A stretch of 15,507 nucleotides of DNA, from IMG/VR virus record IMGVR_UViG_2778261457_000008, positions 1 through 15,507 of that record, one strand, 5' to 3'. The DNA is from a virus (taxonomy: Duplodnaviria > Heunggongvirae > Uroviricota > Caudoviricetes). The notes below the pieces were generated by a model that was not told the DNA's origin, did no database searches, and saw only the letters and a list, made by a program, of their open reading frames with translations. The first letter of the stretch is position 1. Every line of letters starts with the position of its first letter. Positions 1,778 to 15,507 of this stretch are shown here, piece after piece. Both the position numbers and the translations under genes were made by a program.

Positions 1778-1978
1778 TTACCCATTGGCGCGGCTTAAGA
1801 GCTTATTTTTGAATTCACAATGGTCACGATATAACCATCTTGCTCGCCCGTGGATAACTTTGGCTTTAGGCAGGTCGCCGGACTTAATCCGGTCATAGAT
1901 GAAGGTTTTACCGAAGCCAGTATCGGCCATGATGAATTTCAAATCAACCAGTGAATCAGGCTGTAGTTCGTGTTGCAT
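1778..1978 (-). CDS. torI: Excisionase / recombination directionality factor, AlpA-Xis winged-helix family (TorI-like)
   Basis: 66-aa product MQHELQPDSLVDLKFIMADTGFGKTFIYDRIKSGDLPKAKVIHGRARW…; GGAG 9 nt upstream of this ATG; the track's upstream ATG at 1993 has no SD; position next to att without int matches KplE1-type layout. Confidence 0.7.
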   Translation of the reverse strand: MQHELQPDSLVDLKFIMADTGFGKTFIYDRIKSGDLPKAKVIHGRARWLYRDHCEFKNKLLSRANG

Positions 1979-1995
1979 GAGTGCTATCTCCAAAT

Positions 1996-9265: not shown

Positions 9266-9634
9266 TTAGTCAGCGAAGGTTAAGACGAGAATTACCTTAA
9301 TGATGTCTGCTACAACAGACACGGCCATAGATAAACCAAAGACGATCCAAGCCACAGTGATGTCTTCACTACCATCGTATAGAGTTCCGTAATCACTGGT
9401 GTAAGGCGTAAATGTCGCGCCTTGATACAATAGGTATAAGCTTGATCCATAGAGGATAAATGCAGATATCCCTTGTATTGCTATGATCACAAGAATCATG
9501 AAACGAGCTGATCTATGCGCCCAAGCCTGGCTTATTTTTTCTGATAGAGATTTCGCAATAAAAGCATGCGCTAAGCCGTAAATTGTCGAGATTGCCAACA
9601 TCCCAAAAAAGCTTGCTATAGCGGTTCCAACCAT
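9266..9634 (-). CDS. Small integral membrane protein (about 122 aa, about 4 TM) directly downstream of cI, in the rex slot
   Basis: ATG at 9634 with AAGGGG 5 nt upstream, 17 nt after the cI stop; the track's start at 9655 is a TTG overlapping the cI stop; very hydrophobic; no recognisable family. Confidence 0.6.
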   Translation of the reverse strand: MVGTAIASFFGMLAISTIYGLAHAFIAKSLSEKISQAWAHRSARFMILVIIAIQGISAFILYGSSLYLLYQGATFTPYTSDYGTLYDGSEDITVAWIVFGLSMAVSVVADIIKVILVLTFAD

Positions 9635-9651
9635 AAGCGCCCCTTGCGTGA

Positions 9652-10368
9652 TCAAACCAGCCTTAGTTTTGTCTCAATTGCAACGCCTATAATCTTGCAG
9701 TTTCCATTGATTGGCACGAGAGGCCATGCAGGATTAAGTCCCTTGAGGTATTTATTTCCGCCGTCGATTATCAGCTTCTTGAATGTTGCTTCGTTAGAGT
9801 CAGAAAGTTTTGCTATGACCAAGCTGCCGTTGATCGCCTCCCTTCCGGTATCGAAAAGAACGAATGTTCCCTCTGGAATGCTTAACCCAACCGGTGCCGT
9901 CATTGAATCACCTTCCACTTTAAGCCAAAACGCATTACCTTGAATATGCGCGTCAGACTCAAGCCAAACATCTATGTCTTTAATGGTGTATGGTTCGCAT
10001 GCTTCACACCACGAGCCAGCCTGGATACTGCTTAACACCGGATACCTCTTTCCTGCTCTGTATTCCCCTGCATACCTTACGTTGGCATCGCTCTTAAGGC
10101 TTTCTGCCTGTTCTGCAACCTTGGCAGCAATTGACTGGCTAAAATCAGCAATTGAGACTTGCAACAATCGTGCAAAACCAGATGCAACCTCAACGTTTAG
10201 CGCGTTTCTGCCATTAAGATAATGCCCTACCGCTCCTTGGGTGATACCAAGTTCATCAGCGATTGAGTATTGGGTTATTCCCAATTCTTTCTTTTTTGAC
10301 TCATACAAAGCCTTAAGACGCTTAGCGTCTTCGAGCTGTTCTGTCGTCAGTGATTTTTTATTTTCCAT
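9652..10368 (-). CDS. cI: CI-type prophage repressor (HTH + S24 LexA-like autocleavage domain)
   Basis: 238 aa; N-terminus LTTEQLEDAKRLKALYESKKKELGITQ and C-terminal FWLKVEGDSMTAP…FKKL closely parallel lambda CI; divergent from cro across operators. Confidence 0.9.
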   Translation of the reverse strand: MENKKSLTTEQLEDAKRLKALYESKKKELGITQYSIADELGITQGAVGHYLNGRNALNVEVASGFARLLQVSIADFSQSIAAKVAEQAESLKSDANVRYAGEYRAGKRYPVLSSIQAGSWCEACEPYTIKDIDVWLESDAHIQGNAFWLKVEGDSMTAPVGLSIPEGTFVLFDTGREAINGSLVIAKLSDSNEATFKKLIIDGGNKYLKGLNPAWPLVPINGNCKIIGVAIETKLRLV

Positions 10369-10445: not shown

Positions 10446-10474
10446 TTGTTCATGGTTAATAACGGAGAGTGCAT

Positions 10475-10669
10475 ATGATTCGAATGACACTTGCCGATTA
10501 CGCCAAAATCCATGGACAGGCTAAAGCAGCCAGTGACTTTGGTGTAATCCAGTGCGCTATCAGCAAGGCCATTCTGGCAGGCCGTAACATTATGGTTACG
10601 GTAAAGCCTGATGGCAGTGTGATTGGAGAGGAAGTTCGTCCTTTCCCAAGCAACAAGAAAAACAAATAG
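10475..10669 (+). CDS. cro: Cro repressor
   Basis: 64 aa from the ATG at 10475 (GGAGAG 5 nt upstream); …[40 protein letters not shown] parallels lambda Cro; the track's GTG start at 10469 is too close to the SD. Confidence 0.85.
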
Positions 10670-10777: not shown

Positions 10778-11056
10778 ATGCAACTTACAAGTACTCGCAA
10801 GAAAGCGAATGCAATTACAAGCAACATCCTGAATCGAATTGCTGTACGTGGTCAGCGAAAGGTTGCCGACGCGTTAGGGATTAATGAATCGCAAATTTCG
10901 CGATGGAAAGACAGCTTCATCCCAAAAATGGGAATGCTTCTGGCTGTTCTTGAATGGGGTGTTGAAGACGAGGAGTTGGCGGAACTGGCTAAGAAAGTAG
11001 CAAGAATGCTGACAAAAGAAAAAGCCCCGAAGAACGGCGAATTCTTCGAGGCCTGA
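10778..11056 (+). CDS. cII: CII transcriptional activator
   Basis: 92 aa; …[39 protein letters not shown] parallels lambda CII. Confidence 0.8.
11014..11052 (-). terminator. oop-like antisense intrinsic terminator overlapping the cII 3' end
   Basis: Minus strand: 11-bp stem with one mismatch (GCCTCGAAGAA / TTCTTCGGGGC), 7-nt loop, then TTTTTCTTTT. Confidence 0.5.
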
Positions 11057-11090
11057 TGTAGAAAGACTGGATCAATCCACAGGAGTAATT

Positions 11091-11237
11091 ATGACAAAAC
11101 AACTCAGTCCTTACCAGGACAAAATTCACAAACACATACTACGTGATCGCTTCCTGTCCAGCTTCAAGCAGCCTGGTCGATTCCGGGCTGAGTTGGAAAA
11201 AGTGAAGCTGATGCAGAAGGAGAAAGGTCATGAGTAA
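11091..11237 (+). CDS. Candidate small basic protein (48 aa) between cII and O
   Basis: ATG with AGGAG 5 nt upstream; no internal stops; overlaps the O start by 8 nt; not in the ORF track (<60 aa); [48 protein letters not shown]. Confidence 0.35.
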
Positions 11238-12090
11238 TCTTGCAACCGTAACACATTTAAGGCCTTCACAACGGCCTGTGGAGCGTCGTGTGGCAGAAGT
11301 TGAAGATGGTTATACCCGTCTTGCAAATGCCCTGTATGAAGAGCTTATCGGCGCTGATTTAACGAAAAATCAGAGCAAGGTTGCCCACGCCATATGCCGT
11401 AAAACATACGGCTACGGTAAAAAGATGGATCGCATCTCTGATAGTCAGTTAGCTCAAATTACCAGGCTGCCAAGACAGAAGGTAAACAAGGCCAAGAATG
11501 AGCTTATCGCGATGAAGGTTATCCTTCGCGAAGGCCAGCAAATCGGGCCTAACAAGAACATCGAGGAATGGCAAATCGAAGGGTGTCACTACTCTGGTGA
11601 TAATGTCACTGCATTGGTGACAAAAAGTGTCACCAAAACGGTGACAGCGCTGTCACCAAAACAGGGACACACAAAAGAAACTATTACAAAAGAAAAAAGA
11701 AATAATAAAAACACTATGTCCGAAAGTGTTCGGACGGAGTGTGAAAAATCACATGACCGTCACGAAGAAACCGACAAGGCATTCGAGGAAATATTCTGGT
11801 GTGCAGGCATGCGGAAAGCCGGGAAGAAAAACGCAGCTTCGGCATTCAGAACACAGTTCAGGGAATGGCGTAAAACTACCAGGGGTACGGCAAGCGAGTT
11901 TGCCACGATGCTGGCAGAAGACATCGCATGCAGGAATGGTAAGCAGTTCGGATTCGACAGGTTGTTACCATCGAGCTACCTGAACGGTCAACGCTGGAAC
12001 GACGAGAAGCCAGAAACTATTCAACCACAATCCAAACCATCATCCGCAATCACCGTATCGAAAACTGGCTACGTGTTTTTCGACAGGTGA
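11230..12090 (+). CDS. O: Replication initiator, lambda O-like N-terminal DNA-binding domain with divergent C-terminal domain
   Basis: 286 aa; N-terminal region (…[14 protein letters not shown]…[40 protein letters not shown]…) parallels lambda O; AAGGAG 7 nt upstream; origin iterons lie inside the gene. Confidence 0.8.
11584..11715. repeat. Replication origin: iterons followed by an AT-rich tract, inside the O gene
   Basis: Palindromic units GGTGACA-N5-TGTCACC (11616-11634) and GGTGACA-N4-TGTCACC (11640-11657), a partial unit at 11596-11610, each followed by AAAAC; AT-rich run 11658-11715. Confidence 0.6.
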
Positions 12091-12093
12091 ACC

Positions 12094-12201
12094 ATGAAAT
12101 CAAAAATCAAATCGCTACTGGTCGCTGGTTATAACCACGGCTGGTTAAGTATTTCGTTTGTAGATTTCTGGTTTAAAAATCTCAATCTGAGGGAATCATG
12201 A
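12094..12201 (+). CDS. Possible 35-aa hydrophobic micro-ORF coupled to the helicase gene
   Basis: ATG 4 nt after the O stop with AGGTG 4 nt upstream; its TGA overlaps the helicase ATG (ATGA); could be chance. Confidence 0.25.
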   Translation: MKSKIKSLLVAGYNHGWLSISFVDFWFKNLNLRES

Positions 12202-14078
12202 GGCCAAGTGAACTTAGCGACCTGCTTTGGGCGCAGGTTGACAGGGTGGCTCCGCACCTGTTGCCAAACGGCAAGAAAGAGGGGCATGAGTGGGTTGCCG
12301 GTAACGTCAACGGTGACAAGGGAAACAGCCTTAAGGTCAACCTTAGCGGCAAGAAAAAATGGGCTGATTTCGCTGAGGGAGACGGCGGTGACATGCTTGA
12401 TTTGTGGATGGCATGTCGTGGAATTAACCTGCATCAGGCTATGCAGGAAGCGAAAGCCTTTCTCGGAATCAAGGATGACGATCACCATTTCGATGCCAAA
12501 CGTGAGAAGAAATTCTCCAGACCTGACCGCAAGAAAATCGCCCGCTACGTTACCAGAACAGAATCCCATCTTGAGTACCTGCAATCGCGTGGCATATCGC
12601 CAGAAGTCGTAAAGCGCTACGAGGTTGTCAGCGGCAAGGTGTGGAATGGAGAACGAGAACTTGATGCACTGGTGCTTCCGTACAAACGCGATGGTGAGTT
12701 GTTGCAGGTCAAGCGAATCAGCACTGAGCGCCCGGACGGGAAGAAAGTCATTATGGCAGAAGGTGATTGTGAACCTTGTCTGTTCGGATGGCAGGCTCTG
12801 GACGCTGGCGTGAGGGCGGTTGTACTTTGCGAAGGCGAAATTGATTGTATGAGCTATGCGCAATACGGCATCTCGGCGTTATCCGTGCCGTTTGGTGGCG
12901 GGAAAGGCGCTAAGCAACAGTGGATTGAGTTTGAGTATCACAATCTCGACAGGTTTGAGGAAATATTCATCTCGATGGACGTTGATGATGTTGGTCGTGA
13001 AGCCGCAATGGAAATCGCAAGCCGACTCGGTGAACATCGTTGCCGTCTTGTTACTCTGCCGTACAAAGACATCAACGAATGCCTGATGAACGGTGTTACC
13101 GAGGATGAAATCTGGCAGTACATCGGCACGGCATCCTACTTCGATCCTGAAGAACTCTACAGTGCGCGAGAGTTTTACCAGGACACTATCAACGCTTTCT
13201 ACGGCAAGCAGCAATATCTGTTTAATCCACCGTGGGAATCTCTGGCAGATAAATTCCAGTTCCGTGAGGCAGAGTTGACGCTGGTCAATGGTGTGAACGG
13301 TCACGGAAAAACGGAGGTTGTCGGGCATATGGCACTTGAGGCAATGCGTCAGGGTGTGAAGACGTGCATCGCGTCACTTGAGCTGAAGCCAGGCATTCTC
13401 CTTAAGCGACTTACCCGTCAGGCGACGTGCTGCAAGATGCCGCCAGTGCTGGAAATTGACTCTGCATTTAAATTTTATGACGAAAGACTTTGGGTGTTTG
13501 GCCTGACCGGAACGGCGAAAGCCGACAGGCTGATCGAAATATTCGACTACGCTCGCCGCCGATACGGGATCCAGTTATTCATCATCGACAGCCTGATGAA
13601 ATGTGGCATAGGCGACGATGACTATAACGGGCAGAAGGCGTTTGTTGACTCGATTTGCGACTTCAAAAACAAAACAAACTCCCACGTCATTCTCGTTACT
13701 CACTCGCGAAAAGGAGACAGCGAAGAAAAACCAACCGGGAAAATGGACGTAAAAGGCTCTGGAGCGATAACAGACCTGACAGACAACCTTTTCATCATCT
13801 GGCGTAACAAGGCTCGCGAGAGAGCGTTACAGAGAGTTCAGAGTGGTGAAAAGATGTCAGAGAAGGACGAACAGTTACTGGCATCTCCGGCATCTGTTTT
13901 GATGCTTGAAAAACAACGTAACGGCGAAGGTTGGGAAGGTGGTGTCCCGTTGTTCCTTGACGAGCAATCGCACCAGTTCCTGCAACTTGAATCAGGATCG
14001 CCATATAGCTACATCGCCAATATGCCGAAATCGGAATATGACGAGGCGTGGCGACAGGAAAACGTGACGGAGTATTAA
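12198..14078 (+). CDS. Bifunctional DNA primase/helicase (Toprim primase domain + DnaB/RecA-like P-loop helicase)
   Basis: 626 aa; Toprim-like VLCEGEIDCMS and ISMDVDDVG; Walker A GVNGHGKTE, Walker B FIIDSLMK, then ILVTHSRKG; occupies the lambda P slot. Confidence 0.8.
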   Translation: MRPSELSDLLWAQVDRVAPHLLPNGKKEGHEWVAGNVNGDKGNSLKVNLSGKKKWADFAEGDGGDMLDLWMACRGINLHQAMQEAKAFLGIKDDDHHFDAKREKKFSRPDRKKIARYVTRTESHLEYLQSRGISPEVVKRYEVVSGKVWNGERELDALVLPYKRDGELLQVKRISTERPDGKKVIMAEGDCEPCLFGWQALDAGVRAVVLCEGEIDCMSYAQYGISALSVPFGGGKGAKQQWIEFEYHNLDRFEEIFISMDVDDVGREAAMEIASRLGEHRCRLVTLPYKDINECLMNGVTEDEIWQYIGTASYFDPEELYSAREFYQDTINAFYGKQQYLFNPPWESLADKFQFREAELTLVNGVNGHGKTEVVGHMALEAMRQGVKTCIASLELKPGILLKRLTRQATCCKMPPVLEIDSAFKFYDERLWVFGLTGTAKADRLIEIFDYARRRYGIQLFIIDSLMKCGIGDDDYNGQKAFVDSICDFKNKTNSHVILVTHSRKGDSEEKPTGKMDVKGSGAITDLTDNLFIIWRNKARERALQRVQSGEKMSEKDEQLLASPASVLMLEKQRNGEGWEGGVPLFLDEQSHQFLQLESGSPYSYIANMPKSEYDEAWRQENVTEY

Positions 14079-14109
14079 ATGACCATCTACATCACTGAGC
14101 TAATAACAG

Positions 14110-14136
14110 GGGCTATTTACACAGTAGCCCTTTTTT
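14110..14136 (+). terminator. tR2-like intrinsic terminator between the replication genes and the nin region
   Basis: Stem GGGCTA/TAGCCC with 9-nt loop followed by TTTTTT. Confidence 0.6.
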
Positions 14137-14376: not shown

Positions 14377-14797
14377 AATTCGATCTCCAGTACATCAGCA
14401 AAACGCTATTCACGCAGTACAGCAAATCCTTCCAGACCCAACAAAACCAATCGTAGTAACCATTCAGGAGCGCAACCGCAGCTTAGACCAAAATCGGAAG
14501 CTTTGGGCTTGCCTTGGTGACGTTTCGCGTCAGGTTGAATGGCATGGTCGCTGGCTGGATGCAGAAAGCTGGAAGTGTGTGTTTACCGCAGCATTAAAGC
14601 AGCAGGACGTTGTTCCTAACCTTGCCGGGAATGGCTTTGTGGTAATAGGCCAGTCAACCAGCAGGATGCGTGTAGGCGAATTTGCGGAGCTATTAGAGCT
14701 TATACAGGCATTCGGTACAGAGCGTGGCGTTAAGTGGTCAGACGAAGCGAGACTGGCTCTTGAGTGGAAAGCGAGATGGGGAGATCGGGCTGCATGA
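14357..14797 (+). CDS. ninB: NinB (Orf) recombination mediator
   Basis: 146 aa; essentially the lambda NinB sequence as I recall it ([72 protein letters not shown]…). Confidence 0.85.
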
Positions 14798-15507
14798 TAA
14801 ATGTCGTTAGTTTCTCCGGTGGCAGGACGTCAGCATATTTGCTCTGGCTAATGGAGCAAAAGCGACAGGCAGGTGAAGACGTGCATTACGTTTTCATGGA
14901 TACAGGGGCAGAGCACCCTAAAACATATGAGTTCATCCGAAATATCGTCAGTAACTGGAAAATAGACTTACATTGCCTTCGTGTAATACCTAATCCAGAA
15001 ATGGGGAAGGCCAGTAGTTATGAAGAGATAGGTGTCAATGATATTGGTCCAGATCTTATACCGTGGAAAAGGATGTTGAATAAATACGGACATCCATATA
15101 TCGGCGGTGCGTTCTGTACCGACAGAATGAAGTCTGTTCCATTCACCAAATATTGTCAGGAAAAGTTTGGGAAAGGAAATTTCATCACATGGCTTGGCAT
15201 TCGCACAGATGAACCAAACAGGCTTAAAAGGGCTAATGGTTTTCGGTACCTGGCTGATATAAGCGATTTTGAAAAACAGGATGTGCTTGATTGGTGGAGT
15301 GAGCAGAAGTTTGATCTTGGCATACAGGAGCATCTTGGTAATTGTGTTTTCTGCATAAAAAAAAGTATGCAAAAGGTGGCGCTGGCAGCCATGGATGAGC
15401 CAGAACTTGCAGATGCATTTATCAACATCCTTGATACAGAAATAAAAACAGGAAAGGTAGACTGGCCCCCTGAATCTCCAGACAACCAATATCACTTAAA
15501 TAAGTGA
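14794..15507 (+). CDS. PP-loop ATP pyrophosphatase / PAPS-reductase-like protein (NinC-position)
   Basis: ATG at 14794 overlaps the ninB stop (ATGA); product begins [15 protein letters not shown], a P-loop-like SGGxxS signature; 237 aa; stop is the last codon of the window. Confidence 0.65.

Follow-up and report, generated by a model that had tools for sequence, protein, structure and literature searches.

The region between positions 11091 and 14132 of the window (the whole stretch of 15,507 nt of viral DNA that was analysed) is best explained as the replication module of a lambdoid (P22-like) prophage, intact and of the ES18 type, a reading to which we assign a probability of about 0.8. In this arrangement, a lambda-O-type initiator gene with an in-gene origin is followed by a 35-aa gene and by a gene for a T7-gp4-like primase-helicase. 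The arrangement is already known, is common among lambda-like prophages, and counts among the standard types of replication module in lambdoid and P22-like phages. The module and its borders comprise the following features:

11091–11237, plus strand: 48-aa DUF2740 gene, homolog of P22 orf48 and ES18 gp58 (Pfam DUF2740, E 8.9e-29)
11230–12090, plus strand: O-like replication initiator gene, 286 aa (Pfam Phage_rep_O, identity to lambda O)
11584–11602, 11604–11622, 11628–11646 and 11651–11669, unstranded: four 19-bp inverted-repeat iterons, TGTCAC-N7-GTGACA (pattern search)
11670–11710, unstranded: A-rich, AT-rich tract, predicted DNA-unwinding element (GC content, lambda alignment)
11711–11742, unstranded: inverted repeat ACACTATGTCCGAA/TTCGGACGGAGTGT, right of the A-rich tract (14-nt arms, 86% complementary)
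11755–12087, plus strand: region coding for the O C-terminal domain core (aa 176–260) and tail (aa 261–286) (sequence comparison)
12094–12201, plus strand: conserved 35-aa ORF, homolog of ES18 gp60 (frame conservation, ES18 annotation)
12198–14078, plus strand: 626-aa T7-gp4-type primase-helicase, a fusion of Toprim and SF4 domains (Pfam, PHROG, structure matches)
12273–12482, plus strand: zinc-less homolog of the DnaG-type zinc-binding domain, aa ~26–95 (TIGR01391)
12822–13085, plus strand: Toprim domain (Toprim_2), aa 209–296 (Pfam)
13260–13979, plus strand: SF4 RecA-like helicase domain, aa 355–594 (Walker A GVNGHGKT at aa 365–372)
14108–14132, plus strand: intrinsic-terminator-like hairpin with a 10-pair stem and, behind it, a T-run (TTTTTATT tail)

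A previous reading made from the sequence alone (the sequence-only reading) had proposed that a lambda-type initiator, its origin lying within the gene and its C-domain unlike that of lambda, is paired with a primase-helicase in place of P, and this architecture is borne out by the domain matches: annotation of both proteins placed Phage_rep_O in the O-like protein and Toprim_2 and AAA_25 in the 626-aa protein. The implied unusualness of the arrangement did not hold up, as it is annotated in the ES18 record ("similar to lambda ori", and gp61 as "putative primase/helicase; similar to phage T7 gene 4") and described as a replication-module type in two publications (PMC10307801, PMC2629481), the first of which, on P22-like typing phages, reads the module as we do. 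The paper given in the ES18 GenBank record is dated 2005. The same module is present in many E. coli genomes, with hundreds of E. coli and Salmonella genomes carrying it, and among Shiga-toxin phages its counterpart is replication type "Eru5". In the literature on the ES18-type module we found no experimental study, and for Eru-type phages nothing is stated to be known about replication (PMC8951638).

The same three-gene order is found in ES18 (genes 59-60-61), and likewise in epsilon34 (genes 50–52), g341c, vB_SosS_Oslo and the Anderson typing phages STMP5/17. ES18 has the same 35-aa gene, an origin within the O gene, and ~88% nucleotide identity to the window over the primase-helicase and module; gene order and close identity (88% to ES18, 98.8% to mEp043) thus place the window in the ES18 type. 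The epsilon34 O protein is reported to be 94% identical to lambda O (PMC2629481) and is itself 96% identical to that of ES18. Phages mEp043, Sf101, vB_EcoP-720R6 and PhiR12_1 carry essentially the same module and iterons, with 98.5–98.8% nucleotide identity over 92–94% of the region and an initiator N-domain 100% identical to that of the window; of substance, only the nin and immunity genes on either side differ, as commonly happens in mosaic phages.

The N-terminal domain of the initiator is lambda-like, as had been claimed. Phage_rep_O (PF04492) matches aa 20–114 (E 1.1e-37; 128.8 bits versus a cut-off of 28.7), TIGR01610 phage_O_Nterm is also matched (E 1.6e-30; 105.4 bits versus 45.5), and residues 1–156 share 48% identity with lambda O (E 1e-43). 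AlphaFold2, run with 83 sequences, gave a model with a mean pLDDT of 74.7 (70–96 in the N-domain, below 50 in the linker and 94–98 in the C-domain), in which a predicted winged-helix domain (aa ~27–110) is followed by a disordered linker (aa 124–166), a helical C-domain (aa ~176–260) and a tail (aa 261–286). Comparison of this model with known structures returned matches only to winged-helix structures, including the DnaD and RepA N-domains, and a profile search of PDB sequences likewise returned winged-helix matches only. Both HMM matches and the predicted fold assign the protein to the lambda O family by its N-terminal winged-helix domain.

The putative origin inside the O gene has the anatomy of ori-lambda, with four ~19-bp in-gene iterons followed by an AT-rich tract. 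The iteron block (11584–11669) encodes O aa 119–147, its iterons start 20, 24 and 23 bp apart exactly like lambda ITN1-4 (39034/39054/39078/39101), and they align in register with the iterons of lambda and ES18; the O N-domain is predicted to bind them. The half-site is TGTCAC, whereas lambda has TCCCTC. The sequence-only reading had taken GGTGACA-N4/5-TGTCACC as the repeat. These palindromes are present (GGTGACA-N5-TGTCACC at 11616–11634 and GGTGACA-N4-TGTCACC at 11640–11657), but they are junctions of adjacent iterons and not iteron units, and this phase was rejected as the repeat unit, with only two copies and a variable spacing. The TGTCAC-N7-GTGACA phase has four copies, a fixed N7, and a spacer, CAAAAC, in common with lambda. 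The pattern has five matches in the window versus 0.44 expected, a number reached in 0 of 200 shuffles; the fifth (12300, two mismatches) is probably a chance match. The shuffle result, together with the register shared with lambda ITN1-4, led us to reject chance or a coding artefact as the source of the repeats.

The AT-rich tract within the O-like coding sequence was also confirmed, at about 11670–11710, with a GC content of 17.5% in the 40-bp window 11680–11719 and a strong skew of A over T. It encodes O aa 147–161 and in the alignment is, like the second half of iteron 4, nearly identical to lambda ori. Over the 86 bp from 11650 to 11735 there is no variable site among 65 unique sequences, versus ~8 expected. 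The inverted repeat to its right, an element overlooked by the sequence-only reading, has a counterpart at the equivalent place in lambda ori, and alignment shows that it is kept in ES18 and phi24B as the first element of a common right-hand block. An Rfam scan of the whole window detected no family.

This right-hand block begins at a recombination joint near 11703, immediately beyond the A-rich tract, and the C-domain, 35-aa ORF and primase-helicase to its right are common to the window, ES18 and phi24B. The joint parts a "specificity" unit (N-domain and iterons) from a "machinery" unit (C-domain, micro-gene and primase-helicase). N-domain and iterons vary together across the three: the window combines a domain 48% identical to that of lambda with TGTCAC-N7-GTGACA iterons, in ES18 both the N-domain and the iterons (ATCCCTC) are lambda-type, and phi24B has an unrelated HTH_36 N-domain with three 21-bp repeats of its own (GGGGTGGGGCAGGAGCTGCCC) at the same position. 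The Eru5 phages Stx2a_F403, phi24B and Min27 share this HTH_36 type with three own 21-bp repeats, and yet their O C-domain, micro-ORF and primase-helicase are 97–98% identical in nucleotide sequence to the window from 11706 onward. In these three phages the helicase gene contains ~1 kb of extra sequence; in phi24B it encodes a 342-aa intein that interrupts the Walker A motif, as already reported (PMC3430580). Comparison of these sequences strongly supports the proposed mosaic replication module, apparently built from one unit of C-domain, 35-aa ORF and primase-helicase that was joined, near 11703, to at least three sets of DNA-binding domain and iterons.

The C-terminal domain of the initiator is unlike that of lambda O, as had been stated from the sequence alone: BLASTP showed no similarity between its C-terminal 130 aa and the C-terminus of lambda O (E 0.25), and the two C-domains match disjoint PHROG families, so that by BLASTP and PHROG the domain is not a homolog of the P-binding part of lambda O. 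No Pfam match was found for it at E values up to 10, AlphaFold2 on the C-domain alone, with a shallow alignment of 14 sequences, gave an unusable model (pLDDT 55.8), and a word-indexed protein search returned almost only near-identical partial proteins. The domain is 92–100% identical in ES18 (95% at the amino acid level), epsilon34 and phi24B. Its wider family comprises 368 representative clusters with varied N-domains, including many different DNA-binding domains.

We consider the C-terminal region a candidate recruitment surface for the primase-helicase. It could instead be a generic initiator part that serves in oligomerisation, binding of unwound DNA or host contact, while the helicase loads itself on the AT tract or is guided by the 35-aa protein. 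Fusion of the family to so many DNA-binding domains would fit such a role, and ring helicases of the T7 type are able to load unaided. In addition, the C-domain core lies beside a DnaC-like loader in Pseudomonas phage Skulduggery and occurs in the "O-only" modules L095 and L096, and in Vibrio phages PVA1 and D65 neither a helicase nor a loader is annotated in its neighbourhood; the core is therefore not specific to a primase-helicase partner. However, at every joint found the N-domain is exchanged while C-domain, micro-ORF and primase-helicase stay together. Across about 10 lineages, moreover, those with C-domain matches extending into the tail all have a primase-helicase neighbour, whereas those with matches ending at ~aa 105 have none. 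The part of lambda O that binds P is also its C-terminal part. We thus regard a generic role of the C-domain as unlikely. The order of O-type C-domain, micro-ORF and primase-helicase is kept in the more distant lineages Fraca and L094, and a primase-helicase follows the O gene in all 79 IMG/VR loci with enough flank among the best 80 matches to the C-domain, all of them ≥98% identical, a scan that shows prevalence and not diversity.

The sequence-only reading had recognised the O-like and primase-helicase genes but overlooked the conserved 35-aa gene between them, whose stop overlaps the primase-helicase start codon (ATGA). Its reading frame and the motif LL[VI]AGYN.G.L are retained in ES18, SEN22, phi24B, Fraca and the metagenomic L094 despite many nucleotide changes, and no Pfam match was found at E values up to 10. 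The protein is possibly an adaptor or regulator.

The 626-aa protein is a fusion of Toprim and P-loop helicase domains in the place of a lambda P-like loader, as the sequence-only reading had stated. It matches Pfam Toprim_2 and AAA_25, with a sub-threshold match to DnaB_C, and PHROG 239 "DNA primase/helicase" (E 1e-170), whereas lambda P matches PHROG 109, to which none of the scanned ORFs belongs. A scan of 25 ORFs, which covered all sizeable ones of the early-right operon, revealed neither a lambda-P-like nor a DnaC-like loader. T7 gp4 structures (5ikn/6n7i/1q57) align over aa 192–539 (best E 5e-23, ~1e-22 overall) and Twinkle matches with E 1.6e-13. T7 gp4 and mitochondrial Twinkle are likewise single-chain fusions of a Toprim primase and an SF4 helicase, homologous over both domains but with only ~25% identity. 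Walker A (GHGKT), Walker B (IID) and the His equivalent to H465, which are invariant together with other motifs, identify an SF4 helicase; at the arginine-finger position, K or R within the family, the window protein has K, and CF208a and T7 have R. Independence of host DnaB is plausible and can reasonably be inferred, because these helicase motifs are intact; compared with lambda, the module has no P but a phage helicase-primase in its place, and would therefore not hijack host DnaB. P22 genes 18 and 12 similarly combine an O-like initiator with a phage-encoded replicative helicase instead of a loader, with orf48 (DUF2740) upstream. P22 gp12 differs in being a DnaB-like helicase without a primase domain and with a non-homologous N-terminal half, and the P22 initiator has a different C-domain.

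Independence of host DnaG is doubtful. The DnaG-type zinc region is recognisable (TIGR01391, aa 26–143; no Pfam match for the first 200 aa at E values up to 10), but all four ligand positions carry A/N/D/E in place of Cys/His, so that the region is homologous to a Cys4/CHC2 domain without being one. The same ligands are lost in the homologs of Fraca, Vibrio phage 1.239.O and Pseudomonas phage CF208a; in the latter two the primase-helicase gene follows unrelated upstream proteins, which counts against the main reading. T7 gp4 requires its zinc domain for template-directed priming and is incapable of it when the domain is missing, and metazoan Twinkle, which has lost the cysteines, is not a primase. 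As all four ligands are gone, self-priming is uncertain, and the 626-aa protein may be a replicative helicase only, with primers laid by host DnaG and initiation independent of DnaB and DnaC but not of DnaG. P22, which brings its own DnaB-like helicase and no primase (PMC10307801), speaks for this reading. On the other hand, the Toprim acids (E212, D216, D261 and D263) and the KD motif are conserved relative to T7 and DnaG and strictly kept down to 45% identity, which points to a catalytic function that has been retained. The zinc-less domain, too, shows good conservation (W.DFA.G..GD.LDLW), which suggests a working, if altered, template-binding module. The window protein thus resembles metazoan Twinkle in the absent zinc ligands and T7 in its Toprim acids, but sits in an initiator-and-origin context, in contrast to the promoter-dependent origin of T7. 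We judge a helicase-only role to be a serious possibility, though one with somewhat less than even odds.

The 3' end of the DUF2740 gene overlaps the O gene start, ES18 gp58 lies at the same position, and the gene accompanies the module in mEp043, Sf101 and ES18; in P22, orf48 is located between oop and gene 18 (PMC3349717). The predicted hairpin directly after the primase-helicase gene would close the module ahead of the nin region. At the left end of the window, a host-type transporter gene is followed by a TorI-like excisionase gene, and no integrase gene separates the two, so the prophage may be rearranged, and the module could be a decaying relic in a defective prophage, its repeats merely inherited and without current function. 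However, its three ORFs are all intact and share 98.8% identity with those of mEp043 and Sf101, the catalytic motifs are undamaged, and the 65 unique sequences show no variation in iteron 4 or the AT tract. We therefore regard a relic as highly improbable; given this identity to sequenced phages, the module is likely functional.

We propose that initiation by the ES18-type module proceeds as follows. By homology to lambda, dimers of the O winged-helix domain would bind the four in-gene iterons and form a lambda-like "O-some", which would destabilise the adjoining A-rich tract. The C-domain, tethered by a disordered linker of ~45 residues that is itself encoded by the origin DNA, would then recruit the T7-gp4-type hexameric primase-helicase instead of P-DnaB, probably via its last ~25 residues and perhaps together with the 35-aa protein. 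The phage helicase would replace host DnaB, making a DnaC- or P-type loader unneeded, and the Toprim domain may lay the primers, the least certain step. The window encodes no polymerase gene, and DNA synthesis is therefore presumably carried out by host Pol III. Going further, we tentatively propose, as a rather improbable extension, that the O tail (~25 residues) and the 35-aa protein form a dedicated adaptor which loads the zinc-less primase-helicase at a lambda-type origin, so that initiation, including that of Eru5 phages, would be independent of host DnaB, DnaC and DnaG and would use a novel recognition of priming sites. If true, the zinc-less domain would recognise priming sites in a mode that differs from both T7 and DnaG.

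As a discovery the module carries little weight, since the arrangement is annotated in the ES18 record and is a standard module type. It also drives some Stx2a phages (Eru5), and it represents a natural domain-swap experiment, in which three origin-recognition units are found on one helicase-recruitment unit.

The window corresponds to the early region of an E. coli prophage of the lambdoid, P22-like type, in which the leftward genes encode, among others, Erf, SSB, an anti-RecBCD protein, SieB and an N-like antiterminator. Its ends, the immunity region and the rightward operon are laid out as follows:

1-1248: complete LacY-family oligosaccharide MFS transporter gene, annotated likewise in E. 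coli chromosomes
about 1778-1993, minus strand: TorI-like excisionase gene, next after the transporter gene
9266-9655, minus strand: 129-aa ORF, same strand as cI and immediately downstream of it
9652-10368, minus strand: cI, immunity region
10469-10669: cro, immunity region
10778-11056: cII, immunity region
11022-11098, minus strand: oop-like antisense RNA unit
11091-11237: DUF2740 gene (48 aa), rightward operon
11230-12090: O-like gene, rightward operon
12094-12201, plus strand: 35-aa ORF, rightward operon, between the O-like and 626-aa genes
12198-14078: 626-aa gene, rightward operon
14108-14132: terminator-like hairpin 3′ of the 626-aa gene, followed by a 70-aa gene and then ninB
14764-15507, plus strand: PAPS-reductase-domain ORF in the nin region, 3′ of ninB, truncated by the window end

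Neither an integrase gene nor a tRNA gene lies between the transporter and excisionase genes, and positions 1-1993 may represent the prophage boundary or a rearranged end. The 129-aa ORF had no Pfam match and a single PHROG match (6534, unknown function); its position is often the site of lysogen-expressed exclusion genes in lambdoid prophages. In the oop-like unit, the conserved 33-bp pO/oop 5′ box (as given in PMC3349717) matches 11066-11098, and a strong minus-strand terminator hairpin (11054-11022) overlaps the 3′ end of cII; an Rfam search returned no family there.

The sequence-only reading had described an initiator with a lambda-like N-terminal domain and a different C-terminal domain, and both points held up. 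The N-terminus matches the lambda O domain (Pfam PF04492, E 1.1e-37; TIGR01610, E 1.6e-30), with 48% identity to lambda O over residues 1-156, whereas the final 130 residues do not resemble the C-terminus of lambda O (E 0.25) and the PHROG families matched by the two C-termini do not overlap. An AlphaFold2 model built on 83 family sequences (mean pLDDT 74.7) predicts a winged helix at aa ~27-110 (pLDDT 70-96), a disordered linker at aa 124-166 (pLDDT <50) and a helical C-domain at aa ~176-260 (pLDDT 94-98), with lower confidence for the tail behind it. In structure searches only winged-helix relatives came up, DnaD and plasmid RepA N-domains among them, and none for the C-domain.

The iterons and the AT-rich tract encode aa 119-161 of the O-like protein, i.e., the disordered linker stretch. 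The repeat unit is a 19-bp TGTCAC-N7-GTGACA present in four copies (starts 11584, 11604, 11628 and 11651); the pattern gave 5 matches compared to 0.44 expected, a number reached in none of 200 shuffles. The palindromic in-gene iterons proposed earlier are real, but in a shifted phase: the unit originally named, GGTGACA-N5/N4-TGTCACC (11616-11634 and 11640-11657), corresponds to the points where iterons 2 and 3, and iterons 3 and 4, meet. Start spacing is exactly that of ITN1-4, the lambda iterons (20/24/23 bp), and the two origins align in register, with near-identity that starts midway in iteron 4 and covers the A-rich tract. This tract, which had also been noticed before, spans about 11670-11710, where GC content drops to 17.5%, and is followed, as in lambda ori, by an inverted repeat (11711-11742). 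Among 65 unique O-gene versions, which are related to one another so that the comparison is no formal test, 89 variable sites occur over a 972-bp region, but none, compared to about 8 expected, in the 86-bp stretch 11650-11735 comprising iteron 4, the A-rich tract and the left arm of the inverted repeat. This absence suggests that constraint acts here on the DNA itself.

The 626-aa protein, previously read as a Toprim plus helicase fusion, is a primase-helicase of the T7 gp4 type. It carries Toprim_2 at aa 209-296, scores above the cut-off for AAA_25 and just under that for DnaB_C, and matches PHROG 239 'DNA primase/helicase' (E 1e-170) and, by phmmer, T7 gp4 structures (E 5e-23 over aa 192-539) as well as Twinkle. 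The Toprim acidic residues and helicase motifs are retained; the arginine-finger position is Lys, and Arg in one relative. At the N-terminus lies a homolog of the DnaG zinc-binding region (TIGR01391, aa 26-143) in which all four zinc ligands are replaced by A, N, D or E. In relatives down to 45% identity this region (12273-12482, aa ~26-95) is otherwise well conserved (W.DFA.G..GD.LDLW), and because three relatives share the loss, it is a family trait rather than decay. The replaced ligands weaken the case for self-priming. Of the two proposed independences, that from host DnaB seems plausible and that from host DnaG doubtful. In phage phi24B (HM208303, 2996-5902) the primase-helicase contains a 342-aa intein (Hint and LAGLIDADG) between K371 and T372 of the Walker A motif, an insertion already described by Smith et al. 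2012 (PMC3430580). A second kind of selfish insertion splits the module in one E. coli genome (NZ_LR536431.1, 3507839-3511627), where about 490 bp of additional DNA carry the annotation NUMOD4-motif HNH endonuclease.

The order of O gene and primase-helicase had been recognized correctly, but the 35-aa ORF between them had been missed. Its frame and motif LL[VI]AGYN.G.L are kept in ES18, SEN22, phi24B, Fraca and a metagenomic contig (L094) despite many nucleotide changes among these versions; it is annotated as gp60 in ES18 and absent from most other annotations. It overlaps the primase-helicase start (ATGA), to which its translation is predicted to be coupled.

The module is already known and common. 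The ES18 GenBank record lists gp59 as 'similar to phage lambda gpO' with an internal rep_origin 'similar to lambda ori', and gp61 as 'putative primase/helicase; similar to phage T7 gene 4'; the same region is described for epsilon34 (PMC2629481), and an O relative plus primase-helicase, as in ES18, is one of three replication-module types of P22-like phages (PMC10307801). The phi24B/F403 version is termed Eru5 in the Stx-phage classification, which states that nothing is known on replication of Eru phages (PMC8951638). Identity to mEp043 and Sf101 is 98.8%, 1200 of 5426 complete E. coli genomes match part of the region (167 at least 80% of it), and all 80 best IMG/VR loci carry this exact module type.

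A full HMMER scan found the C-domain core in 368 representative clusters, with N-terminal partners that include HTH_36 (14), Phage_rep_O (11), DUF1376 (9) and DnaD_N (6) among 83 sampled members. Where the match extends through the C-terminal tail (window type, ES18, phi24B, Fraca and L094), the micro-ORF and primase-helicase always follow. Where it reaches only to about residue 105, Skulduggery has a DnaC-like loader as neighbor, PVA1 and D65 have no annotated helicase or loader nearby, and two lambdoid prophage contigs, L095 and L096, are 'O-only', without a helicase, primase or loader gene downstream. The initiators of these contigs (L095 3501-4424, L096 374-1255) share the core at 48-50% identity; such modules have been noted as not understood (PMC12315714). 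Primase-helicase homologs of Vibrio and Pseudomonas phages have unrelated upstream proteins. Since neighbors vary in this way, the core is a general initiator domain; judging from about ten lineages, partner specificity, if any, probably resides in the C-terminal tail or in the micro-protein.

The suspected mosaic nature of the module was borne out by a three-way alignment, which places a joint directly 3′ of the A-rich tract. The Stx2 phages phi24B, Min27 and Stx2a_F403 as well as APC_JM3.2 are 97-98% identical to the window only from 11706 on, and ES18-group phages about 88%, mainly from about 11657 on. Left of the joint, three different units adjoin the shared right block. The window type has TGTCAC iterons, in the ES18 type both N-domain and iterons are lambda-like, and the phi24B type combines an HTH_36 domain with three copies of a 21-bp repeat, GGGGTGGGGCAGGAGCTGCCC. 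These copies lie inside the phi24B 'O' gene (HM208303, 2398-2463; spacing 21 and 24 bp), at the position that lambda-type iterons occupy, and probably constitute the origin of Eru5. Fraca has a fourth N-domain, which lacks a Pfam match. Because different left units meet one right block at this joint, the DNA-binding domain and iterons move as one block, and the C-domain, micro-gene and helicase as another, the classical pattern of lambdoid phages. The proposed division of labor between left unit and right block draws its main support from this block-wise co-movement.
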